Below are positions 18,935 to 58,863 of a stretch of DNA of 64,000 nucleotides, piece after piece. Below the pieces are notes generated by a model, which was not told the origin of the DNA, did no database searches, and worked only from the letters and a program-made list of their open reading frames with translations. Each line of letters starts with the position of its first letter. The stretch's first letter is position 1. The translations under genes were made by a program, and so were the position numbers. Origin of the DNA: Candidatus Staskawiczbacteria bacterium RIFOXYB1_FULL_38_37 (lineage in GTDB: Bacteria; Patescibacteriota; Minisyncoccia; Minisyncoccales; Staskawiczbacteraceae); assembly GCA_001822075.1 (NCBI GenBank), contig MHPK01000003.1, positions 9,437-73,436 of the forward strand. The letters are read 5' to 3'.

Positions 18935-19726
18935 TTATTGAGAAAGATTTTCTGTCTCTACAGAATTGTTATTTTGGATTTTTTGTTGTATTTTCCGCTG
19001 GATTCTTTCTTGAATTTTATTTTTAACATTAGCCCTTATGCTTTCTATTTTTCCTTTTATGTCTTCTGGCATTTTTTCTTTTATCCTGTCTAAAATTTCA
19101 GAATTGATTTCATCTCCGTTTTGAAGGGCATTTTTTACCCTTTCTGCAATTTTCTCTTTGTTATTTTCAAGCTTTTGCATTACCTGGCCGAATCTCTCCA
19201 AATGCCTTTCTCTCGCCTCTTCAATTTTTTCAAAAACTTGTTCTGGAACTTGTCCTTCTAATTTTTGCAATATTTTTTCGTGCAACACCTGTTGGTTTGT
19301 AAATTTTTCTAAAAATTTGCTTACATCTTCATTTTCTGAAGCTTTTTCTTTTATTTTTTCTGCCCTTTCCTTTATTTTATCTACCGCATTTTGATATTTT
19401 TCTGTGGCTTTTTCTATTATTGCCGGGTCAGAAGAATTATCAATAATCTTTTTTAACTCCACTAATTTTTCATTAGTAAATTTATTTTCCAGCTCTAACT
19501 TTTTAACATTATTAAAAATAAAAGTCAGCCTGATTTGCCTGCCCCATTCCTTTAAAAAATAAAAGGGGCTGTCGGGCAGCAGGGTGGGGTCAGATACCCC
19601 GAGGTCTTCAGCTGATGCGTCTTGTGTCTCGGCTGCCGTATTTTCCTGGGCCAAGGCTGTAACAGCCGGCATTAAAACAAAAAACAATACATAAAATATC
19701 AATATAAATTTTGCTGTTTTTGTCAT
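18935..19726 (-). CDS. secreted coiled-coil protein (DUF5667-like)
   Basis: Signal peptide ...AVTALAQE; SPFYFLKEWGR motif; Lys/Glu-rich helical remainder. Confidence 0.6.
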   Translation of the reverse strand: MTKTAKFILIFYVLFFVLMPAVTALAQENTAAETQDASAEDLGVSDPTLLPDSPFYFLKEWGRQIRLTFIFNNVKKLELENKFTNEKLVELKKIIDNSSDPAIIEKATEKYQNAVDKIKERAEKIKEKASENEDVSKFLEKFTNQQVLHEKILQKLEGQVPEQVFEKIEEARERHLERFGQVMQKLENNKEKIAERVKNALQNGDEINSEILDRIKEKMPEDIKGKIESIRANVKNKIQERIQRKIQQKIQNNNSVETENLSQ

Positions 19727-41786: not shown

Positions 41787-44700
41787 ATGGAAAAAGATAA
41801 GTTGAACGTCGCTAAAAGAATCTTTGTAAAGCTCAATGTTTTGCTGCTGATTTTTGGTTTCTTGTTTCAGCCGCCAGCTGGCGTTTTTGCGCAAAACGAA
41901 ACAAATGAAAAGCCGCCCACTTCTATACAAATAAGCGATAAGGCCGACAAAACAAAAACCCAGCTTGATAAAGCGCTTGAAGAGGTTCAGCCTAAAGACG
42001 AAAATAAAAATTTTGAGAAAGAGCAGAGCCAAGAAGATTCTTCAGCCGCAGAGCCTGTAGAGCAAGCCTCTGCCGTCGAGGACGAAAAAACTTCTAATTC
42101 AAACCGCATAACTATTGATGTTGATTATGCGACAGGCGCTTTTTCATATAAATATAAGCTTGACATTCCTGCTGGGCGCAATAGCTTAAACCCTATAATA
42201 GATTTAAAATATAATTCCGAAGATAAAAACAATGCCTCGGAAATAGGTTTTGGGTGGTCTTTGTCTATTCCAAAAATTAAAAGGCTCAATAAAAGGGGAG
42301 TTAATTTGCTGTATGAAAGCAACGATTTTTATTCATCGCTCTCTGGCGAACTCGAAAAAATATCCGAAAGCGCTTTTGGCGCAAAAATTGATGATGGCTC
42401 AATGTTGGATTACCAATTAAACAATAATGTTTGGACAGTTACAGCAAAGGATGGAACAAAATATATATTTGGCGGAGAGACGTCTGCCATGCTTGAAGAC
42501 CCTTCTGATTTGTCAAAGGTTTACGAATGGTATTTAAGCAGAATTGAAGACACAAACGGAAATTTTATTTCATACAATTATTATGATGACACAGCCAACA
42601 ACGTTGTTTACCCCGATTCGATTACTTACACAAATTATGGCGGAAGCGCAGGTATTTATGAAATTGATTTTATAAAAGAGGCAAGGCCAGATGAATATTT
42701 TAGTTATGCTCCCGGATTTTTAACAAAGACAACAAAAAGAACTGCCCAAATTCAAGTTTTAACCAATGGATTATGGACTAGAAAATATGTATTAGGATAT
42801 GAACAGGGCGATAATGGTTACCGCTCCATGCTCAATTCTGTAACTGAATACGGCAGAGATGAAGCGGGTGCAATAACCGCTTTGCCCGAAATGAGCATGT
42901 TATACAGCGCAGGAGAAAACAGCTTAGTTAATAACAGCAATAATAATTTTCCATGGCCCGAATCTCAAAACCAGCCGGCCTCTCCTTTTTCTCTTGCCGA
43001 CGGATATCTGCGCGTAATGGATTTAAACGGCGACGGATTAAAAGACATCGCCAAATCATACAATATCCAGATAAACGGAATTGATAAGCCGGTATTTTGG
43101 GTTTTGGTTAACACCGGCCACGGCTGGGCGCAAGACACCAGCTGGACCCAGCCTATTTACTCTTTTGTTGATGGACAGGGCAGAACCATTGAAGGAAAAT
43201 TTGTTTTTTCAGGAATTGACACAGGAGATTGGAATGGAGACGGTAAAGATGACTTAATCAGGTTTTGGAGAGAAGACTTGGGCGGAGGCAGGGATTTGCA
43301 GCACGTTGTGGTTCTTTTGAATAATGGCTCTGGTTGGACGCAAGATAAAAATGTTTCAATTGATAATATTACATATTCTAATGCTTGTACTGGCGGCAGC
43401 ATATATATTATGTCTGGAAATTCGGGCGGACGTTTTGTTGATTTAAACGGCGATGGTTTTTTAGATTATGTTTATGCTTATAATATACAAATCAATGGCG
43501 TACACTGTCCGATATTTGCAGTGCTTTACAATGAAGGAGGAAACTTAAAATGGGACCAAAGCGTTACTGTGCCCTGGGTAAATAATGGCTCTGGCAGCGC
43601 CCCGCTTTCCCTAAACGACAGCATAAAAGCTCTTGATTTAAACGGCGATGGTTTGCTTGATTTTATATGGGCCTTGGATAACTCCAATCCTTATTTTTGG
43701 GTTTTGATAAACACCGGCCACGGCTGGGCGCAAGACACCAGCTGGACCCAGCCCACATACACATATTTAAGTCCATCAGGGGCTCCTCAAAATGGATACT
43801 TCATAACTTCGTCTGGAGCTGGCTGGCGGCCCATGGAAATAAATGGGGATAATTTGGTTGATTTTGTGAGACTTTGGACCATTGACATCGGAGGCGGGCA
43901 TTCAGTTGGCCGAAGCGCTGTTTTGGTTAACACCGGCCACGGCTGGGCGCAAAACGATTCTCTGCTTGCTGTTGGCAATTATACGGCCAGCAATAACGCA
44001 ACTGGCTATCCTATAACAACTAAAATGTCAGCAACCATAATTTTTGATGCTAATGGCGATGGAATGGACGACATAATGCATACAGCAGTTTCGCAGACAA
44101 ACGGAGTTTATGATGTAACAGACTGGCTTATGCAAAATACAGGGCATTCTGCCAATCTTGTAGAAAAAATAACTCTTCCTGAAGGCGGAAACTTTTCGTT
44201 TGATTATAAGGCAAGCACAAGCTACACAGACCAATCTGGCAATCTTTTAAACCCAAATCTTCCAATAACCTATAACACATTAAAATCTGTAACAAGTAAC
44301 GATGGCTTTGGAAATCAGGCAGTTACAACTTACGAATATGCAGATGGAAGCTATTTTTATAATAACGTCTATGACCGCAGGTTTGCCGGATACGGAAAAA
44401 TTACAGTTCAAGACCCTGTTGGCAATAAAACTATAATTTATAATCATTTAGGCAATGGCTTGCAGGCGGGAGAAACGGGTTCTGACCCGGCTGACGGAAG
44501 CTTAATAGGCAAAGCTTACAAAACGCAACGTTATGATGCTTCAGGAAACCTGTTTTCTGAAGCATATACAGATTGGGTGAGTTATGATTTAGGAAATAAT
44601 AGAGATTTTACGTATAAGGCAAAAGAAGTGTCCAATGAATCCGGAAAACAGAGCGCTGTTGAATATATTTATAATACAACCACAGGAAATTTAACAAACC

Positions 44701-47700
44701 AAACCAATTATGGCAAAGTATTGGCTTTGGCTGGCAATTTTACTGACATAGAAGCAGACAAGCGCGCAGCAAACTACACCTATACAGCAGCAGGCCCCAT
44801 ATTGCCCTCAACATTAGAAATTCTTAACCATACAGGCAACAAAGTCAGCCAGAAAAAATTTTATTATGATAACCAGCCGCTCGGCGCAGCTGTTAAGGGA
44901 AACCAGACAAAAATTGAATTTTGGCTATCGGGCGGCGCATACATTAACTCTCAAAAAACCTATACCAACAATGGTCTGGTGAAAACAGAAACCGACCCAA
45001 TGGGCAACGTCACAGAATACTTTTATGATGCTTATGATATGTATCCTGAAGTTGTTACCAATCCGTTATCTCAAAGCGCTTATTATGTTTATGATTATGG
45101 CATTGGAAAACCAAAACAAATCACGGACGCCAACGGGAATATATTTAAAAATTATTTTGACGGCTTGGGCAGAATTTTAAGGGCAGAACAGCCGGACGAA
45201 ACTAACCCTGCAGTTTTAGTTATTAAAACATCTTATATTTATAATAATGCCTCGCAAGCCGTGAGCATCCAAAAAACAGATTATCTGGATTCCTCAAATT
45301 TTGTTTCCAGTTATAATTATTACGACGGCTTGGGCAGAATTATCCAAACAAAAAAATCTGCTGAAAATAATAATTTTTCAACAAAAGATTTTGTTTATGA
45401 TAACCGTGGAAATTTGCAAAAAGAATCTTTGCCGTATTTCTCAAATATTTCAGCAAGAACAGCATCCAGCTCAACGTCGCAGCTTTATACAACTTATGTT
45501 TACGATGCTTTAAATCGTAAAATCAGCGAAACAAACGCAGTTGGTGCAACTTCTTTTGCATACCAAAACTGGCAGACAACAATTACAGACGCAAACAACA
45601 AACAAAAAGATTATGTTTATGACGCATATAATAATTTAATCCAGGTAAAAGAGCATAAAAGAGCTTACACATATATAACCTCTTATGTTTATGATGCAGC
45701 CGGAAATTTAATAAACATCACAGATGCTTTGGGAAATGTGCGCAATTTTAGCTATGACAAATTAGGCAGAAGGTTAACATCCCAAGATTTGCGCAGCCCG
45801 GCGGATTCTGTTTTTGGCGCGTGGAGATATTTTTATGACCGCAACGGAAATTTAATCAGTTCAATTAATCCTGAAAGGCAGATAATTGTTTATACCTACG
45901 ACGCATTAAACCGCAAAACTAGCGAAAACGATACTAGCCAAACAGGCGCAGAGTTAGTTTTGAGATATGACGATTGCAAAAATGGCGCAGGAAAGCTTTG
46001 TTATGCAGCTCCATTCGGGCTAAAAGAAAATTTTGAATATTCGCCAACGGGAAACACAACTAAAGACACAAAAAGAATTGCTGATACGTTTGTAGCCAGA
46101 ATTTTTGCAACAGAATATGCTTACGACCGCCAGGGCAATCAAACTTTAATTACAAACCCTGATTTATCGCAAATAAAATACCAATATAATATGGGAGGCT
46201 ATCCGGAAAAAGTTTTGTATAAAGAATCGAGCGGCGCAGATTTTGCAGAAATTGTAAGCAACTTTGATTATACGTCTGCAGGCCAAATTTCAGACATTTA
46301 TTATGCCACCGGCGCCCACACAACAAACACTTATGACGCAAACAAGCTTTATAGATTAACAAAAAAATTATCTGTTTCCGGAGACGTTAATCTGCAGGAT
46401 ATTTCTTACCAATATGACAATGTTGGAAATATAAAACAGATAATTGATAATTCCAGCACAGATGCCAGAAAAACCGTGGTTTATGTTTACGACGATTTAT
46501 ACAGATTAACTTCAGCTTCGGCAACCAACACAGCCAACAGCCAGAATTATACTGAAAGTTTTGTTTACGACGCAATAGGAAATATATTGTCAAAAAAAAT
46601 AAATGGAGAAAAAATAAATTACAGATACAAAGGAAATTTAAACAATACTGGCTCTGATTATGCAAACCCTGACGCCGCGACAGAAATAGCAGGAGATGTT
46701 TCAACCAGCTATAAATACGACCGCAACGGGAATATGACCGGCCAAGGATTGAATATATACAAGTATGACTATAACAATCGGCTGTTATCTTTTACTGCGC
46801 CGGGCGACCCCGCCCCTTATGATGGAAGAATAGATTATGCCTATGACCACACAGGTCAGAGAATAAAAACAAGAAAATTCGCCAGCGATGGAATTTTTGT
46901 GACATATTATCCAACTATGTATTACAACAAATTGCGGGACGAAATCACAAAGCATATTTTTGCAAACGGCTTAAATCTTGCTACAATAGAAGTAACAGGG
47001 GACACAGCAAAAACATATTTTAACTTTTCAGACTCCCTTCAAAGCTCAAGTGTGATGACCGACCAAACCGGAGCTGTTGTGGAAACAATGGATTACTACC
47101 CGTTTGGCGAAATACGGCTAGACAGCAAAACAGCAGATTTTGCAGAACAGCGCAAATACATAGGTCAGGAATACGACGAGGACACAGGGCTCAACTACCT
47201 TAATGCCAGATACTACAACTCCGCCATAGCAAGGTTCGTGACCCAAGACCCGATGTTTTGGAACTTTGACAGTTCATGGCTGGCAGACCCCCAAAACCAA
47301 AATGCGTACGCATACGCGCGGAACAACCCGATAACATTGTCAGACCCCTCTGGCGAAAAAGCATGGATAGAGTCTAAGTCAGTTTTTGATGTAAGGGGAA
47401 ATGCTGTTGGAATTCATACTTATTTTAAAGCAGTTCCAAATCATCCCGACGAAATTAATATTCAGGGTTTGCCCAAAGGAGCAGAGGGATTTACTATGGG
47501 CGGATATAACAGCAGTAATTTTGGTCCGACTAACAAGTTGATAAAAAATATGGGAACCACTGAAACGAGCTGGGATAAAGATACAGCTTTTGGTGATGGG
47601 GTGAAAATAAATAGCATGGAGATTAATCCGCCCGAAGGTCAAAATGACACTCAATTTATTAATAATCTCGGAAAGATTTATAATGAAACTGACTTGTCGG

Positions 47701-47975
47701 GAATGAATTATTTTAGTCTTGGTAATGTTAGAATAGGGAACACAAGTCTCTTTTATGATGCAAACTGCAACAATTTTTCTTACACACTAGGCGTAAAGGC
47801 AGGAGTAAAAGACCAAATGGATTCATTTGATCCAGGTCCTGGCGTATCTAGATCTATAGGTGAATATGGTTATAAGACAACCCTACCAACGACAAGTGTG
47901 TATAGAGAAATTAAGAATCAAATAAACTCATTAAAAGAAAGAGTTGGTAGTTTTATTAGTTCATTAAATAAATAA
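41787..47975 (+). CDS. SpvB/FG-GAP(VCBS)/RHS-repeat polymorphic toxin (2062 aa)
   Basis: Signal peptide; SpvB-type GFGWSLSIP; six DxNGDGxxD repeats; many YD repeats (YxYDxxGN); RHS core ...YLNARYYNSAIARFVTQDP...NNPITLSDPSGE; ~205-aa unassigned C-terminal domain. Confidence 0.9.
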   Translation: MEKDKLNVAKRIFVKLNVLLLIFGFLFQPPAGVFAQNETNEKPPTSIQISDKADKTKTQLDKALEEVQPKDENKNFEKEQSQEDSSAAEPVEQASAVEDEKTSNSNRITIDVDYATGAFSYKYKLDIPAGRNSLNPIIDLKYNSEDKNNASEIGFGWSLSIPKIKRLNKRGVNLLYESNDFYSSLSGELEKISESAFGAKIDDGSMLDYQLNNNVWTVTAKDGTKYIFGGETSAMLEDPSDLSKVYEWYLSRIEDTNGNFISYNYYDDTANNVVYPDSITYTNYGGSAGIYEIDFIKEARPDEYFSYAPGFLTKTTKRTAQIQVLTNGLWTRKYVLGYEQGDNGYRSMLNSVTEYGRDEAGAITALPEMSMLYSAGENSLVNNSNNNFPWPESQNQPASPFSLADGYLRVMDLNGDGLKDIAKSYNIQINGIDKPVFWVLVNTGHGWAQDTSWTQPIYSFVDGQGRTIEGKFVFSGIDTGDWNGDGKDDLIRFWREDLGGGRDLQHVVVLLNNGSGWTQDKNVSIDNITYSNACTGGSIYIMSGNSGGRFVDLNGDGFLDYVYAYNIQINGVHCPIFAVLYNEGGNLKWDQSVTVPWVNNGSGSAPLSLNDSIKALDLNGDGLLDFIWALDNSNPYFWVLINTGHGWAQDTSWTQPTYTYLSPSGAPQNGYFITSSGAGWRPMEINGDNLVDFVRLWTIDIGGGHSVGRSAVLVNTGHGWAQNDSLLAVGNYTASNNATGYPITTKMSATIIFDANGDGMDDIMHTAVSQTNGVYDVTDWLMQNTGHSANLVEKITLPEGGNFSFDYKASTSYTDQSGNLLNPNLPITYNTLKSVTSNDGFGNQAVTTYEYADGSYFYNNVYDRRFAGYGKITVQDPVGNKTIIYNHLGNGLQAGETGSDPADGSLIGKAYKTQRYDASGNLFSEAYTDWVSYDLGNNRDFTYKAKEVSNESGKQSAVEYIYNTTTGNLTNQTNYGKVLALAGNFTDIEADKRAANYTYTAAGPILPSTLEILNHTGNKVSQKKFYYDNQPLGAAVKGNQTKIEFWLSGGAYINSQKTYTNNGLVKTETDPMGNVTEYFYDAYDMYPEVVTNPLSQSAYYVYDYGIGKPKQITDANGNIFKNYFDGLGRILRAEQPDETNPAVLVIKTSYIYNNASQAVSIQKTDYLDSSNFVSSYNYYDGLGRIIQTKKSAENNNFSTKDFVYDNRGNLQKESLPYFSNISARTASSSTSQLYTTYVYDALNRKISETNAVGATSFAYQNWQTTITDANNKQKDYVYDAYNNLIQVKEHKRAYTYITSYVYDAAGNLINITDALGNVRNFSYDKLGRRLTSQDLRSPADSVFGAWRYFYDRNGNLISSINPERQIIVYTYDALNRKTSENDTSQTGAELVLRYDDCKNGAGKLCYAAPFGLKENFEYSPTGNTTKDTKRIADTFVARIFATEYAYDRQGNQTLITNPDLSQIKYQYNMGGYPEKVLYKESSGADFAEIVSNFDYTSAGQISDIYYATGAHTTNTYDANKLYRLTKKLSVSGDVNLQDISYQYDNVGNIKQIIDNSSTDARKTVVYVYDDLYRLTSASATNTANSQNYTESFVYDAIGNILSKKINGEKINYRYKGNLNNTGSDYANPDAATEIAGDVSTSYKYDRNGNMTGQGLNIYKYDYNNRLLSFTAPGDPAPYDGRIDYAYDHTGQRIKTRKFASDGIFVTYYPTMYYNKLRDEITKHIFANGLNLATIEVTGDTAKTYFNFSDSLQSSSVMTDQTGAVVETMDYYPFGEIRLDSKTADFAEQRKYIGQEYDEDTGLNYLNARYYNSAIARFVTQDPMFWNFDSSWLADPQNQNAYAYARNNPITLSDPSGEKAWIESKSVFDVRGNAVGIHTYFKAVPNHPDEINIQGLPKGAEGFTMGGYNSSNFGPTNKLIKNMGTTETSWDKDTAFGDGVKINSMEINPPEGQNDTQFINNLGKIYNETDLSGMNYFSLGNVRIGNTSLFYDANCNNFSYTLGVKAGVKDQMDSFDPGPGVSRSIGEYGYKTTLPTTSVYREIKNQINSLKERVGSFISSLNK

Positions 47976-47984
47976 AAATAAAAT

Positions 47985-48278
47985 ATGAGAGAGAAATTTA
48001 ACAATTTAATAAATCAAATTAGAAAATTGTTTTTTGGAATATTGTTCGGTTTTGGTATAGAGCTTTTTTTTGGAGTGGGATTGTCCTATTTCTTAGAAAA
48101 ATTTATCACAAATGATTTTGATCAACAATTGTTTGTGATACATTATCCATTATCGGCAATTTTAATTTTGAGTACGTATCTTATCTTTTGGAAAAAACAA
48201 TATACAATAGTTGCCGGCATTTTTTTAGGTGCCATTCTTTTTATTTTTTTATTGGCATTTTTGCTTACGGGTGTTTAG
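47985..48278 (+). CDS. small 3-TM membrane protein, candidate immunity protein
   Basis: Starts 9 nt after the toxin stop; three hydrophobic helices; position typical of Rhs immunity genes. Confidence 0.5.
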   Translation: MREKFNNLINQIRKLFFGILFGFGIELFFGVGLSYFLEKFITNDFDQQLFVIHYPLSAILILSTYLIFWKKQYTIVAGIFLGAILFIFLLAFLLTGV

Positions 48279-48412
48279 TTCGTGGCATAAATGGGGTCAT
48301 GTGATAAATGGGGACAATAAATGAATAAATGGGGACAGCCACCATTTATTTGCTACAATATGTGGTAATTGTGTGGTAATTGGTAATTGGGACAGCCACC
48401 ATTTCAGTCAGA

Positions 48413-48578
48413 GTTAAAGGGGTCAGGTACCTTTGATTGTCATTCTAATCGTGATACACTTAATTAATGCCAAGGGTTTTACGAGTATAAGGGTTAAGGG
48501 GAGGGTTAAGGGGTCAGGTACCTTTGATTGTCATTCTAATCGTGATACACTTAATTAATGCCAAGGGTTTTACGAGTA
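48413..48578 (+). repeat. tandem duplication (75 + 74 nt, ~92-nt period) of the RayT left end
   Basis: GTTAA(A)GGGGTCAGGTACCTTTGATTGTCATTCTAATCGTGATACACTTAATTAATGCCAAGGGTTTTACGAGTA occurs twice. Copy 2 carries the real ATG (48558). In copy 1 the same ATG is followed by a stop after 7 codons. Confidence 0.9.
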
Positions 48579-49245
48579 GATATTGGAAATCAAATTTACC
48601 ATGTCCTTAATCGGGCAAATGCCCGTTTGCCGATTTTTTTTAAAGAACAAGATTATCAGTTGTTTGAGAACATTCTTGAAAATGGCCGTGAAAAGTTTGA
48701 TATGCGTATTTTAGCTTACTGCTTGATGCCGAATCATTTTCACTTAGTCTTGCAACCTAAGGAAGATGGCGGTTTGCAAAGGTTTATGCAGTGGGCGACC
48801 TTAACACACACGCAACGTTGGCACAGCCAAAACAAAACCATAGGCTCGGGGCACCTGTATCAGGGCAGATACAAATCGTTTATCATACAAGAAGACAACC
48901 ACTTATTGGCAGTCATCAGATATGTGGAGCGCAACCCGCTCCGAGTTAATATTGTCAAACAAGCAGAAGATTGGCGCTTTTCAAGTTTGTACCGCAGGAT
49001 GTTTCCAAAAGAATTTAAAATGCATAAAAGAATTTTGTCAGACCTGCCGATTGATATGCCCAAAGATTATCTCGCTTTTGTTAACCAACCGCAAACAAAC
49101 GAAGAAATCGCGGCTATACGTTATTCGGTTAACCGCGGCAGACCTTTTGGCAATTGTGAGTGGGCTGATAAAATTATTAAGGCGTTCGGGCTTGAATCAA
49201 CCGTACGGAGCAGGGGCAGGCAAATCAAAGGTACCTGACCCCTTT
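48416..49245 (+). mobile_element. RayT gene bracketed by 23-bp inverted repeats
   Basis: AAAGGGGTCAGGTACCTTTGATT (48416-48438, and one A shorter at ~48508-48529) versus its exact reverse complement AATCAAAGGTACCTGACCCCTTT (49223-49245); each holds the AGGTACCT palindrome. Confidence 0.65.
48558..49238 (+). CDS. REP-associated / IS200-like Y1 (HUH) tyrosine transposase (RayT-like)
   Basis: YHVLNRANARLPIF, HUH motif LMPNHFHLVL, catalytic-Tyr region IRYVERNPL. Confidence 0.85.
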   Translation: MPRVLRVDIGNQIYHVLNRANARLPIFFKEQDYQLFENILENGREKFDMRILAYCLMPNHFHLVLQPKEDGGLQRFMQWATLTHTQRWHSQNKTIGSGHLYQGRYKSFIIQEDNHLLAVIRYVERNPLRVNIVKQAEDWRFSSLYRRMFPKEFKMHKRILSDLPIDMPKDYLAFVNQPQTNEEIAAIRYSVNRGRPFGNCEWADKIIKAFGLESTVRSRGRQIKGT

Positions 49246-49336
49246 GTTTGACCCCTTTGTTCGACCCCCCCTTTGTTCGACCCCTTTGTTCCTTTGTTCT
49301 TTGTTCCCTTCTTTGTTCCCTTTGTTCCTTTGTTCA
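49238..49336 (+). repeat. degenerate pyrimidine-rich short tandem repeats (GACCCCTTTGTT decaying to CCTTTGTT)
   Basis: Read directly; directly upstream of the 49340 promoter. Confidence 0.8.
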
Positions 49337-49339
49337 CAT

Positions 49340-49367
49340 TTGACGTGCTTGTATGAAAAAGTATAAT
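49340..49367 (+). promoter_or_regulatory. sigma70-type promoter (TTGACG-16-TATAAT), near-leaderless
   Basis: TATAAT ends 49367, ATG at 49375, no SD. Confidence 0.6.
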
Positions 49368-49374
49368 TAAATAT

Positions 49375-49611
49375 ATGAAAGAAGATTTTACAGAATTAGT
49401 TGAATATTTGGATGAGAAATTTGGCAAAGTTGCAGAAGATTTTAAGGAATTAAAAGATAATTTTAATTTACTGCAAAATTCTGTTGATGCTTACGCAGTA
49501 AAAGCCGATACATATTTTCAGGAGATGACCATGCTGTCTGAAAAGGTTAACCGCCACGATAAGTGGCTTTTACAAATTGCTGAAAAATTAGGCATTAAAT
49601 TAGAATACTAA
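49375..49611 (+). CDS. small coiled-coil protein, twin paralog 1 (78 aa)
   Basis: MKEDFTELVEYLDEKF... ...QIAEKLGIKLEY; both ends identical to 51372..51626. Confidence 0.65.
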   Translation: MKEDFTELVEYLDEKFGKVAEDFKELKDNFNLLQNSVDAYAVKADTYFQEMTMLSEKVNRHDKWLLQIAEKLGIKLEY

Positions 49612-49653
49612 GTAAAAAAGGGATCAGGGGACTTTAATAACAAACAATTTTTA

Positions 49654-49690
49654 ACGGCTCAACCCTATTTAGGTTGAGCCGTTGGCGTTT
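49654..49690 (+). terminator. intrinsic terminator
   Basis: ACGGCTCAACC-CTATTTA-GGTTGAGCCGT followed by TGGCGTTTT. Confidence 0.55.
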
Positions 49691-49793
49691 TGGGGCTGGT
49701 TTTGCGCTTGCTGAAAATTTGACTAATTGTGATTATTCTGGCAGAATAAAATACAAATCATTCAATCAGTATAAAATTATAAAAGCAGTAAAA

Positions 49794-50177
49794 ATGAAAG
49801 TAAATGAACTTATGGCATCAAATCAAAAAAAGTCAGCCATAGACGTAAAATACATTAAATGGTGCCGGAAGATTGCTAAAACAAACAATGAAGTTGAACT
49901 TATATCTCATTTTAGAGAACACGCTTATAAGCACTTCAATCGGCATAAACACGAAGGAGAACTTGGTTTAAGAATTTGGTTAATTGGAGTTTTTAATTTT
50001 ATGTATATCCTAAGAGAAAAATACCCAAAAATTACCACAGACGATATGCTGTTTAAGCTTTGTTCATACTATAAAGATTATAAAAGAGGGTCTAAGCCAT
50101 CTTTTAATATTGATAAATTTATGAGAAAATACAAGGGAGACATTAAAGATTATTATTATGAATATCAGGCAAAATAA
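49794..50177 (+). CDS. hypothetical protein (127 aa)
   Basis: In-frame ATG (aa 41) of track ORF 49674..50177, whose upstream part lies in the terminator; no motif recognised. Confidence 0.5.
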   Translation: MKVNELMASNQKKSAIDVKYIKWCRKIAKTNNEVELISHFREHAYKHFNRHKHEGELGLRIWLIGVFNFMYILREKYPKITTDDMLFKLCSYYKDYKRGSKPSFNIDKFMRKYKGDIKDYYYEYQAK

Positions 50178-50622
50178 GAAAATTTTGTATATAGATATGG
50201 ATGGCGTGTTGGCTGACTTTGATTCTGAAATCGCAAAAATTGATGCTGGCACGCTTAAAAAATATAACGGTAATTTTTGCAGTATTCCGGGTATTTTTTC
50301 AAAAATGTCCCCGATGCCCGGCGCAATTGAAGCCTATGAAAAATTATCACAAAAATTTGATACATATATTTTATCAGCTGCGCCATGGGATAATTCTTCC
50401 GCCTGGTCTGATAAACTGCAATGGGTAAAAAAGCATTTGGGAGAGGCAGCATATAAACGGTTAATAATTACTTGCCATAAAAACTTAAATAAAGGAGATT
50501 ATTTAATAGATGATACAAACAAAAACGGCGCTGGAAAATTTGCAGGCGAACTTATTTTATTTGGTTCGGCAAAATTTTTAAATTGGAAAAGCGTTTTAGA
50601 ATATTTGTTGAAAAAGGAATAG
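50158..50622 (+). CDS. 5'(3')-deoxyribonucleotidase (HAD, NT5C-like)
   Basis: YIDMDGVLADF (DxDxV/T HAD motif I), later K and DD motifs; size. Confidence 0.75.
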   Translation: MNIRQNKKILYIDMDGVLADFDSEIAKIDAGTLKKYNGNFCSIPGIFSKMSPMPGAIEAYEKLSQKFDTYILSAAPWDNSSAWSDKLQWVKKHLGEAAYKRLIITCHKNLNKGDYLIDDTNKNGAGKFAGELILFGSAKFLNWKSVLEYLLKKE

Positions 50623-50652: not shown

Positions 50653-51201
50653 ATGCCAACACGCATAGTTGTGGGAGGGGTAGCAAATTGTGGTAAATCT
50701 ACACTTACGGCATCTATTTACAGAGAGATGCAAGCCAGAGGCATTAATGTGGGCATTCACGAGTTGGATGTTTTTGAAAATACCATTCCTTATATTCTTG
50801 GCATTGAAAGCTGGGGACAGAGGATAAAAGTAAAGTCGGGCGATTGGGCAAACCCATGCATTAGCCAGGCAATCGCCACTTTTACAAGAGACAAACGTCA
50901 TTTTGTTTTAGGAGACCTTACGGGCATAATAGACGGTCTTTTAGAAAAAATGGTTGAAAAGGCAGATTTGGCCATTGCTATTGGAAAAGACCAGCAAAGT
51001 CTTCAAGATTGGCTTGATTTTTTTAAATCTCAAAAAATTCCGGTAATAATAAAAGTTATTTCTTATGTTGGCGACACCTTGCCCCAGTGTTCTTTTGAGG
51101 ATGTAATTTTTGTTGGAAACTTAAAAAGGAAAGTCTTAAAAAACGATGAGATTTATCGGGTCGTTAATCAGTTACTCATAGTGTGTAATCATGCGGATTG
51201 A
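50653..51201 (+). CDS. P-loop NTPase, unassigned
   Basis: Walker A GGVANCGKST, Walker-B-like FVLGDLTG. Confidence 0.55.
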   Translation: MPTRIVVGGVANCGKSTLTASIYREMQARGINVGIHELDVFENTIPYILGIESWGQRIKVKSGDWANPCISQAIATFTRDKRHFVLGDLTGIIDGLLEKMVEKADLAIAIGKDQQSLQDWLDFFKSQKIPVIIKVISYVGDTLPQCSFEDVIFVGNLKRKVLKNDEIYRVVNQLLIVCNHAD

Positions 51202-51237
51202 TGTTAAAATATCATCCGCTTTTTTTATTTTGTTTAG
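51193..51237 (+). terminator. intrinsic terminator
   Basis: GCGGAT ... ATCCGC followed by TTTTTTTATTTT; 5' arm overlaps the stop codon. Confidence 0.6.
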
Positions 51238-51254
51238 ATTGATATAATAAAAAA

Positions 51255-51335
51255 ATGGTGGCTGACCCCCATTTCATTTCACATTTCCCATTTCCCCCAT
51301 TCTTTTCACATTATTCACTCACCCCATTATTCGCT
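51255..51335 (+). repeat. degenerate pyrimidine-rich repeats (CCCATTT-type) starting with ATGGTGGCTGACCCCCATTT
   Basis: Read directly; the first 20 nt are the near reverse complement of AAATGGGGACAGCCACCAT at 48328-48346. Confidence 0.7.
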
Positions 51336-51371: not shown

Positions 51372-51626
51372 ATGAAAGAAGATTTTACAGAATTAGTTGA
51401 ATATTTGGATGAGAAATTTTCTAATATAGACAGACAATTAGAAAATTTGAAAGAGAATAAAACAGATAAGTCTGATATGAATACTTTGTTCAATGCGGTT
51501 GACGCTTACGCCCAAAAAGCCGATGCGTTTTTTCAGGAATTAGTGATGCTTTCTCACCAAATAAACCGTCACGAAAAATGGCTACACCAAATTGCCGAAA
51601 AATTAGGCATTAAACTGGAATATTAA
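51372..51626 (+). CDS. small coiled-coil protein, twin paralog 2 (84 aa)
   Basis: In-frame ATG (aa 40) of track ORF 51255..51626; the upstream part is the repeat/promoter region. Confidence 0.65.
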   Translation: MKEDFTELVEYLDEKFSNIDRQLENLKENKTDKSDMNTLFNAVDAYAQKADAFFQELVMLSHQINRHEKWLHQIAEKLGIKLEY

Positions 51627-57750: not shown

Positions 57751-58863
57751 ACATAGGTAACACCCCCATTTTACCAAAAACTGGTAAGATTAGGACAAAT
57801 GTTAACTTATCTCATCAACATGGTATATGAAACCTATTGGGCCGCCCTCAAACGGGCACAAGCCCCTTTTGATAAAGCAGTTCACTGGCGCAAAGTCGCC
57901 AAAGCATTAAAGCTAAGCCAAAAAGCCTGCGGTCGTCTTGAATGGATGATATTTTATCAATTCACAGCAGAGAACAACGCCTCTTTAACCTGTCGTCATT
58001 TCGGCATCAACCGCAAGCTCTTTTACACATGGCTTAGCCGTTTCGACGATTCTAATTTAAAAACCCTGGAAGACAAAGACAAAGCTCCAAAACATGTCAG
58101 GCAAAAAGAAATTACGCAGACAGAAGAGAGCAGGATAATTGAATTAAGAAAGAAATATATCCGTTGGGGTAAAATCAAACTGAAAACTCTTTACAAAAAC
58201 ATTTATTCAGAAGAAATCTCTTCGTGGAAAATCCAATACACAATTAAGAAATACAAGTTGTATTACCACCCGATAAAAAACGAAAAGATGCAAAAGAAAA
58301 GGAAGCGAAACCAAAAGAAGAAACGCATTACCGAACTTGCAAAGAAACAACAGCCGGGCTTCCTCATCAGTTTTGATACCATTGTGATATACTGGAATGG
58401 GATAAAGAGATATATATTCACCGGCATTGATTCCGTCTCCAAAGTTGCTTTTGCCAGGATGTACACAACCAAATCTTCTTACAACGCTCGAGATTTCCTT
58501 CAAAGAATGCATTATCTGCTTGAAGGGAAGATGTTGAATGCCGGACACGATAACGGATCTGAATTCTGCAAGCTGTTTCAACAACAACTAAAAGAACTTG
58601 ACATTACCCAGTATCTTTCCAGGCCGCACACTCCGACAGACAATCCGGTTTGCGAGAAATTCAACCAAACCTTGCAACAAGAATTCATTGACCTCGGCAA
58701 CTTCACGCCCGACTGCGCAGAATTCAACCGTTTGCTTACCGAGTGGTTGATAGAATACAACTTTGTCAGACCCCACCAAGCGCTCGGATATTCAACGCCA
58801 ATACAATTTACCGAGAAAACATTAAAAGTGTTACCTATGTGGCCGTCTCGTGCAAGACCTTGA
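57751..58863 (+). mobile_element. IS481-like insertion sequence
   Basis: 13-bp terminal inverted repeat ACATAGGTAACAC (57751-57763) / GTGTTACCTATGT (58828-58840) around a DDE transposase whose stop lies just beyond the right repeat; no target duplication seen. Confidence 0.6.
57799..58863 (+). CDS. DDE transposase, integrase-core (rve) type, IS481-like
   Basis: N-terminal HTH; DTIVIYW..., HDNGSEF, NPVCEKFNQTLQQEF (D, D, E), YNFVRPHQALGYSTP. Confidence 0.85.
   Translation: MLTYLINMVYETYWAALKRAQAPFDKAVHWRKVAKALKLSQKACGRLEWMIFYQFTAENNASLTCRHFGINRKLFYTWLSRFDDSNLKTLEDKDKAPKHVRQKEITQTEESRIIELRKKYIRWGKIKLKTLYKNIYSEEISSWKIQYTIKKYKLYYHPIKNEKMQKKRKRNQKKKRITELAKKQQPGFLISFDTIVIYWNGIKRYIFTGIDSVSKVAFARMYTTKSSYNARDFLQRMHYLLEGKMLNAGHDNGSEFCKLFQQQLKELDITQYLSRPHTPTDNPVCEKFNQTLQQEFIDLGNFTPDCAEFNRLLTEWLIEYNFVRPHQALGYSTPIQFTEKTLKVLPMWPSRARP

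Follow-up and report, generated by a model that had tools for sequence, protein, structure and literature searches.

A probable TIRtron cassette with a tandemly duplicated left end in a Patescibacteria genome

Introduction

TIRtrons are defined in the text of Di Nocera, De Gregorio & Rocco (2013, BMC Genomics 14:522) as units in which a gene similar to the RAYTs (tyrosine transposases associated with repetitive extragenic palindromes, REPs) is located between long terminal inverted repeats (TIRs) that share the motif GGGGWSAS, and TIRs with this motif are given there as the majority type; the enzyme is termed TIRYT. According to the same text, some TIRs overlap the 3′ end of the gene, the TIR families of some members are moderately abundant and occur as solo copies, dimers, or clusters, and the phyla that carry TIRtrons include Planctomycetes and Acidobacteria. 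The locus treated here lies at positions 48413-49245 of a 64,000-nucleotide stretch of DNA (the window) from Candidatus Staskawiczbacteria bacterium RIFOXYB1_FULL_38_37 (assembly GCA_001822075.1, contig MHPK01000003.1, positions 9,437 to 73,436). It encodes a Y1 HUH transposase and is in all likelihood a TIRtron/TIRYT cassette, that is, a low-copy gene between 23-bp TIRs. The TIRtron type is already described; the host is a member of the Patescibacteria (candidate phyla radiation, CPR), and no mention of TIRtron or TIRYT elements in this group was found in the literature searched.

Most TIRYTs fall into TnpA_Y1 subclass 2.1 (Quentin 2018), which is reported as the largest RayT-like group (Quentin 2018, Bertels 2017). 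RayT-like enzymes (class 2) are characterized by a Y---NP tyrosine motif, in contrast to Y---Q in the IS200 enzymes of class 1 (Quentin 2018). Members of subclass 2.1 harbor an HuH motif of the form NHVH or NH[YF]H, a tyrosine motif of the form YIELNP or Y[IV]HLNP, and SS in the tail (Quentin 2018, Table 1). They consist of about 238 amino acids with a C-terminal extension that shows similarity to helix-turn-helix (HTH) domains (Bac_DnaA_C, HTH_23, or HTH_28), and no REPs were found with them (Quentin 2018). In the grouping of Bertels (2017), the 16-mers that flank RAYT group 1 genes reach about 12 copies per replicon compared to 57-140 in true REP groups, and group 1 is the most insertion sequence (IS)-like group besides group 6, which clusters with IS200. 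Judged by motifs and architecture, the present TIRtron/TIRYT appears to correspond to subclass 2.1 and RAYT group 1.

In the REPtron of Escherichia coli, a single-copy gene for TnpA_REP (4ER8; Ton-Hoang 2012, Messing 2012) is located between inverted copies of a sequence that is also found without the gene, an organization that the present cassette resembles. TnpA_REP is a protein of 165 amino acids that lacks a C-terminal tail. The REPs form GC-rich hairpins, carry a GTAG guide at the foot, and occur in hundreds of copies. The TnpA enzymes of IS608 and ISDra2 (IS200/IS605 family) share the Y1 HUH fold with the protein described below and recognize their ends through DNA secondary structure. 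Unlike it, they belong to class 1 (Y---Q), the left and right subterminal hairpins of their elements differ, and these elements are multicopy and often carry tnpB; none of these features is present here.

The TIRYT gene and its protein

The gene (48558-49238, plus strand) encodes a Y1 HUH nuclease/transposase of 226 amino acids that is supported by its open reading frame (ORF), its motifs, and family and fold matches. The HuH motif is formed by N59-H60-F61-H62 (codons at 48735-48743), and the predicted catalytic tyrosine is Y122 (48921-48923) inside of RYVERNP. Both motifs had been pointed out in the initial annotation of the locus, and the alignment bears them out, as HuH residues 60-62 and Y122 are invariant across 27 homologs. 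In Pfam, the protein matches Y1_Tnp (E 1.1e-16). Its sole NCBIfam match is REP_Tyr_transpos (NF047646) with 73.2 bits, which is below the 80-bit equivalog cutoff, and no IS200-family NCBIfam model is matched. A sequence search of the PDB yields one match only, E. coli TnpA_REP (4ER8), at 18% identity; no IS608 or ISDra2 chain is found. The AlphaFold model (pLDDT 88.6) likewise has 4ER8 as its best fold match (E 4.9e-9; TM-score 0.72, normalized to the target), followed by the TnpA proteins of ISDra2 and IS608.

The tyrosine motif is of the Y---NP type and not of the Y---Q type, and an FSS143 motif is located beyond the core. The combination of NHFH, YVERNP, FSS143, a length of 226 amino acids (within a range of about 226-238), and a C-terminal extension resembles subclass 2.1 and RAYT group 1, as do the lack of canonical REPs, the low copy number, and the rare plasmid members. 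The C-terminal tail comprises about 80 amino acids and is conserved, helical, and confidently modeled. By its motifs, the protein is classified as a RayT-like class-2 Y1 enzyme and not as an IS200 TnpA. The RayT assignment in the initial annotation is upheld by the proximity to TnpA_REP in sequence and fold and by the Y---NP motif, but the REP_Tyr_transpos cutoff is missed by about 7 bits.

Homologs are abundant. Among the word-sharing protein candidates, 7979 of the 8000 scored reach E ≤ 1e-5, and the best 120 are all full-length with 60-83% identity to the window protein; few of these have named sources, all of which are Patescibacteria. An exhaustive search of 50%-identity representatives yields 530 clusters at E ≤ 1e-30 and 12,137 at E ≤ 1e-10. 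At 60-83% identity, homologs extend across CPR classes and make up thousands of 90%-identity clusters.

Terminal repeats and the duplicated left end

The gene is bracketed by an outer left TIR (48416-48438, plus strand, AAAGGGGTCAGGTACCTTTGATT) and a right TIR (49223-49245, minus strand), which are exact reverse complements of each other (23 nt, 100% complementary); in a shuffle control, none of 100 shuffles gave any match. The right TIR covers codons K224-G225-T226 and the TGA stop (AAA GGT ACC TGA). A second, gene-proximal copy of the left TIR (48507-48529, plus strand, TAAGGGGTCAGGTACCTTTGATT), recognized by repeat comparison, differs by one mismatch. It belongs to a tandem duplication of the left end (48417-48578, plus strand) with 71-nt exact copies at 48417-48487 and 48508-48578 and a period of 91, each of which consists of the TIR, promoter-like boxes, and the first seven codons. 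Because the duplication spans the gene start, copy 1 holds a dead ORF (ATGCCAAGGGTTTTACGAGTATAA, 48467-48490, plus strand), which reads MPRVLRV followed by TAA. The bracketing by a 23-bp repeat and its exact reverse complement, the location of the right repeat in the last codons, and the tandem left end with its abortive 7-codon start were all noted in the initial annotation, and each is recovered here.

Two independent ENA assemblies from different samples (L001 and L002) contain the identical locus, duplication included, which makes the left-end duplication real and not an assembly artifact. Beyond these two, 17 further places show mostly the same neighboring genes.

The core motif of the TIR, GGGGTCAG, matches GGGGWSAS, as does the GGGGACAG that is carried by a second repeat type of the window. 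Together with the position of the TIR over the gene's 3′ end, the lack of GTAG REPs, and the solo and dimeric repeat copies in other genomes, this likens the locus to the TIRtrons characterized in the text of Di Nocera et al. It differs from them as portrayed in that text in its Patescibacteria host and in an 18-bp core that is nearly invariant across phyla. No GTAG or GTGG (GT[AG]G) is present in the sequence at the foot of the window TIR. Compared to REPs, the TIR has an A/T-rich stem, no GTAG, a conserved tetranucleotide in the loop, and few copies. A literature text search for the TIR sequence returned chance primer matches only, and the sequence is likewise absent as text from the supplements of Di Nocera et al.

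Promoter-like boxes are located at 48524-48551 (plus strand). The −35 box TTGATT (48524-48529) coincides with the inner TIR end and is followed by a 16-nt spacer and by TGn with the −10 box TACACT (48546-48551). Between the −10-like box and the ATG there are 6 nt, so the mRNA would be leaderless. In a generic promoter scan, the boxes score 8 of 12 matches and remain below the threshold; their conservation in homologs suggests that they constitute the gene's own short promoter. An Rfam scan of 47500-50500 at E ≤ 1 yields two chance-level matches only, both away from the element, so the repeats are not explained by a known RNA family.

Relatives of the cassette

The homologs inspected (42-81% identity) are from a closed Kaiserbacteria genome, Paceibacteria, Saccharibacteria, Nitrospirales, and Planctomycetota. 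All of those with readable flanks share the architecture, and the repeat is nearly unchanged; this holds for relatives in Patescibacteria, Planctomycetota, and Acidobacteriota. In most inspected loci, the repeat core GG[G/T]GTCAGGTACC is located about 25-45 nt upstream of the ATG, and a −10-like box is found 6 nt before it (for example in L003, L005, L007, L009, L082, L132, and L133), with the −35 region overlapping the inner repeat end. The complement of the repeat usually extends over the K-G-T-stop codons. A metagenome scan by protein adds 12 loci only, too few by themselves for an end-duplication frequency.

A relative with 33% identity on a Pseudomonas aeruginosa plasmid has perfect 32-nt TIRs that start with AAAGGGGACAG at the same positions. 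This locus (L141, NZ_CP116719.1, 16138-17615) consists of a "transposase" between the perfect 32-nt TIRs AAAGGGGACAGATTTATTTTCCCTACTCTAAT and has an extra left TIR copy, 81% identical and 65 nt further out, which is another left-end duplication. The plasmid contains three matching places.

The Planctomycete TIRtrons L034 (at about 7088) and L099 (at about 2933) combine a left TIR that is a perfect palindrome, AAAAGGTGTCAGACACCTTTT, with the common form of the right TIR, GGTACCTGACACC. This palindrome corresponds to a pair of outer halves that meet at TCAG, and it might be a donor-joint or target form. An interpretation of this variant (GGTGTCAGACACC) as the excision donor joint of two outer halves was considered and is not relied on.

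Repeat copies without a gene

Species-representative genomes (one per species) were scanned in 8-kb blocks for the exact 18-mer AWGGKGTCAGGTACCTTT. At least 119 blocks contain it; they are from Planctomycetota, Acidobacteriota, Patescibacteria/Saccharibacteria, and a few other groups. Among the matches listed there are 176 exact TIR copies, of which 125 lack a Y1 gene in the 800 nt on their inner side, 17 flank a full gene, 13 flank a gene fragment, and 21 are too near a block edge to be classified. Inverted dimers with a distance of 23-93 nt account for 33 of the 125 gene-less copies among these matches. Copy numbers per genome are lower bounds, and one Planctomycete metagenome-assembled genome holds at least 20 copies. 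The repeat forms dispersed families in other genomes. A comparison of the 18-mer with 2.9 million viral contigs gave no match and no sign of a phage vehicle.

The initial annotation had named two findings that would speak against a RayT, namely a flanking repeat unique to this locus and a protein that clusters with ordinary IS200/IS605 TnpA. Within the window, the repeat is indeed confined to the locus, but dispersed families occur elsewhere and the protein does not group with ordinary IS200.

End duplications and stutters

The duplicated left end is one case of a recurrent trait. Independent end duplications are found in 9 of the 19 full-gene loci inspected (18 homolog loci and the window). 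The left end is present two times in the window and three times in L130; the right end is present two times in L003, L005, and L009, five times in L116, and as a partial duplication in L093. Both ends are affected in L120 (left three times, right two times) and in L132 (left two times, right four times), and the left-end duplication of L132 includes about 11 codons, comparable to the window. In the truncated locus L091, a left-end duplication takes in 49 codons. The proposal of the initial annotation that the duplication may be a footprint of activity gains support from this recurrence. The Kaiserbacteria loci L003 and L004 (L003:10654-10770, L004:6224-6300) have no mismatches over 13 kb and are set apart by one 49-nt duplication of the right TIR end; length differences of 21 nt and 2 nt occur elsewhere.

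In addition, some TIRs are preceded on their outer side by short tandem partial copies, or stutters. In the window, the left stutter (48490-48513, plus strand) consists of two units of AGGGTTAAGGGG, in which flank is combined with the initial 6 nt of the TIR, and is continuous with TIR copy 2. The right stutter (49237-49335, minus strand) is made up, in minus-strand reading, of eight partial units of the form AACAAAGG(GGTC[A/G]), and the full TIR comes after them. Exact tandem arrays of flank and partial TIR that end inside the TIR are found at 30 of 199 TIRs (15%) compared to 1.2% of random anchors, and arrays that start inside the TIR on its inner side are not enriched (1%). A seeded search detects at least one partial outer copy at 41 of 220 TIRs.

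The lengths of the partial copies are bimodal. Copies of 6 nt (AAGGKG/, n = 18, the slash marking the break) and of 10-11 nt (...TCAG/G, n = 27) predominate, and each other length is represented by 0-7 cases. The two break points coincide with the two edges of TCAG. Over 34 arrays, the junction microhomology is 0, 1, 2, 3, and 4 nt in 16, 11, 4, 2, and 1 arrays, respectively, which by our estimate is about chance level. The GGTG-type TIR folds as single-stranded DNA with −4.8 kcal/mol (z −3.0), and the better-folding repeat variants have an A/T-rich stem and a loop of TCAG(G) or ACAG. The break points thus lie on both sides of the tetranucleotide in the loop, which corresponds to WSAS in GGGGWSAS. 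Neither end duplications nor TCAG-flanking outer stutters appear in the text of Di Nocera et al., figures aside.

Proposed mechanism and rival explanations

By analogy with E. coli TnpA_REP and IS608 TnpA, the TIRYT protein would bind the repeat as single-stranded DNA and would cut and rejoin it via Tyr122 and the HuH metal site; single-stranded cleavage and rejoining is presumed for TnpA_REP and TIRYT alike. The repeat would fold into an A/T-rich stem with a loop that exposes TCAG (ACAG in the second repeat type). The same enzyme may spread or maintain the gene-less copies at other genomic sites, both solo TIRs and inverted dimers. The left-end duplication and the outer partial-copy arrays would be local by-products of repeated and partly abortive cutting and rejoining beside TCAG. 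Because the left TIR overlaps the −35 box, binding of the protein at this site probably represses the gene. Site-specific nicking beside TCAG by the TIRYT enzyme is put forward tentatively. Such a nick would resemble a Rep-like loop nick and would differ from the reactions of IS608 and REP enzymes, in which a guide defines a cut outside of the hairpin. That the stutters are in vivo footprints of TIRYT, with nicks on either side of the loop TCAG and abortive reactions that build tandem duplications at every visited site, is possible and still doubtful.

Several observations weigh against this mechanism or against the placement and mobility of the cassette. The literature searched, in which the term TIRYT itself is rare, contains no TIRYT biochemistry, and the whole mechanism for this reason rests on analogy. 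The window TIR folds weakly as single-stranded DNA (−2.3 kcal/mol, z −1.0), no better than shuffles, which contradicts the description of the repeats as hairpin-bearing in the initial annotation, and the complementarity of the TIR flanks beyond the 18-mer shows a small excess only, at offsets 1-2. On their outer side, the stutter units are bounded at anywhere from 4 to 12 nt outside the TIR, a spread that is not predicted by one pair of fixed cleavage sites. The difference between L003 and L004 could be a recent event or a repeat that was collapsed by the assembler. No gene-less copies with the exact TIR core are found elsewhere in the window, where it occurs at the gene only, and none of the exact type are found within ±10 kb of four CPR homolog loci; the dispersed family is known from other genomes and not from the 64-kb window of the source genome. 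The C-terminal tail, for which HTH similarity is reported in subclass 2.1, matches no Pfam family, HTH models included, even at E ≤ 10. Finally, about 19 of the 22 contigs read with this exact protein have mostly the same neighboring genes, and these mostly constant surroundings give no sign of recent movement.

The main rival explanation for the duplications and stutters is replication slippage or template switching at a site that is structured or bound by protein; this explanation is considered rather unlikely. The arrays are short, tandem, local, and located beside palindromic sequence, and the variable outer unit boundary (4-12 nt) fits such a process. A tightly bound protein could also stall replication forks at fixed positions and in this way lead to fixed inner break points. 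However, slippage normally needs microhomology, which is estimated to be no greater than expected by chance and is missing from 16 of the 34 arrays. The breaks occur at two positions 4 nt apart that flank a conserved tetranucleotide and not at the base of the stem, and the asymmetry between the outer (15%) and inner (1%) sides is more compatible with a directional reaction.

A different classification would regard the locus as a canonical REPtron, in which a domesticated RayT lies between REP hairpins that form a large REP/REPIN family throughout the genome. The proximity of the protein to TnpA_REP, the inverted repeats that bracket the gene, and the mostly gene-less repeats elsewhere, often in inverted dimers that resemble REPINs, agree with it. 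It is nevertheless improbable, and with it the "classic RayT arrangement" of the initial annotation is given up, since the repeat has no GT[AG]G tetranucleotide at its foot, forms a poor hairpin, and is found in its exact form in the window only at the gene. In addition, the NCBIfam equivalog cutoff is missed, no REPs were found with subclass 2.1 (Quentin 2018), and the flanking 16-mers of group 1 reach about 12 copies only, versus 57-140 in the true REP groups (Bertels 2017).

Very improbable is an ordinary autonomous insertion sequence of the IS200/IS605 type that moves as a unit and for which the end duplication is incidental. The Y1_Tnp domain, the differing contexts in related genomes together with a nested or truncated copy, the rare relatives on plasmids, and the IS-like standing of group 1, second to group 6 (Bertels 2017), are in line with it. 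It is opposed by the Y---NP motif in place of Y---Q, by the failure of IS200-family NCBIfam models and of IS608 and ISDra2 chains to match by sequence, and by the neighborhood, in which small unrelated ORFs instead of tnpB adjoin the gene. The element is furthermore present as a single copy in the window and has true terminal inverted repeats and not differing subterminal hairpins, and its protein is 60-83% conserved across CPR classes. Lastly, an assembly artifact can hardly account for the tandem duplication: short-read assemblers can mishandle tandem repeats, and L003 and L004, otherwise identical over 13 kb, differ by such a repeat, but the same duplication with its 91-nt period recurs in independent assemblies of different samples, and similar duplications are found in many unrelated assemblies, among them the closed genome CP060229.1.

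Mobility of the cassette

The TIRtron cassette is probably a mobile small gene unit, and comparison of related sequences suggests that its position changes over longer times. In L131, a complete TIRtron directly follows a homolog of a ParA-like gene of the window (50750-51234, 83% amino acid identity), a position that in the window is taken by a solo TIR of the second type at 51253. In L091, the cassette follows homologs of genes that are located 13 kb away in the window. L129 harbors a diverged 5′ fragment of a TIRYT gene (L129:20-160, 61% amino acid identity) with its own −10 box. The fragment is cut off at the next TIRtron and stops exactly at the stuttered left TIR of this complete element (212-889, 81% identical to that of the window). 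It appears that one cassette was inserted into, or recombined with, another.

Implications

The enzyme is compact (226 amino acids) and highly conserved (60-83% across CPR classes), which makes it usable by experimenters, and its presumed substrate is a defined 18-23-bp sequence that is almost unchanged in distant phyla. The stutters, as natural scars, lead to a testable prediction of the cut sites at both edges of TCAG. If the proposed mechanism is true, the near-invariant 18-bp site AAGGKGTCAGGTACCTTT and its enzyme would represent a system that spans CPR, Planctomycetota, and Acidobacteriota, and the cleavage sites would have been mapped by comparative genomics alone. If the cassette forms circles, the joined inner halves would read GGTACCTG/GTACC and the donor joints GGKGTCAG/ACMCC. 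A genome-wide count of GGGGWCAGNNACC would separate a little-dispersed TIRtron (fewer than about 10 copies) from a REP-like population (tens to hundreds). TIRtron cassettes are widespread in reduced CPR genomes, and their repeats represent local hot spots of tandem duplication that are able to copy promoters and gene starts, as in the window.

A second repeat type and neighboring genes

Directly outside the left end, at 48280-48404 (plus strand), the window contains a second TIR/hairpin type, AA(T)TGGGGACAGCCACCATTT, in two copies (48328-48347 and 48385-48404), each of which is preceded by its own partial-copy stutter. Repeats of this type read GGGGACAGCCACC / GGGGGTCAGCCACC, and the copy at 48328-48347 forms a strong hairpin as single-stranded DNA (−7.0 kcal/mol, z −3.6) with the loop ACAG. 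A solo copy on the minus strand (AAATGGGGGTCAGCCACCATTT, 51253-51272), with an outer-side stutter at 51265-51325, is located downstream of the ParA-like gene. The copies of this type face each other across a 2.9-kb segment in which the TIRtron and four small genes lie, and a cognate gene of this repeat type is absent from the 64-kb window.

Two paralogous small genes without a Pfam family (49375-49611 and 51375-51626) encode coiled-coil-like proteins of 78 and 83 amino acids, and both are located directly downstream of a TIR in right orientation with its stutter. The two are near-identical over about 80 nt, which comprise the promoter (TTGACG-16-TATAAT, 11 of 12 matches) and the first 18 codons, and only about 70% identical in the remainder, a pattern that points to gene conversion or to a partial duplication of recent date. 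A degenerate TIR-like sequence, AAAAGGGATCAGGGGACTTT (49615-49636, plus strand), directly follows the 78-amino acid gene, so this gene sits between a right TIR and a decayed TIR. The small ORFs that adjoin the TIRYT gene gave nothing above the curated cutoffs of Pfam.

Further away, GGGGTCAGATACC occurs within GGGTGGGGTCAGATACCCCGAGG at 19586-19598, inside of a minus-strand ORF of 263 amino acids (18935-19726), and may reflect a chance match or the insertion of a repeat into the gene. Upstream of the cassette, a 2062-amino acid SpvB/RHS/YD-repeat toxin-like protein (41787-47975) is followed by a hydrophobic ORF of 97 amino acids (47985-48278), and the TIR cluster begins directly downstream of it. 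At 57799-58863, the window encodes an rve-family integrase (IS-type DDE transposase) with an HTH N terminus, and it is in this part of the locus that L001 begins to differ from the window.

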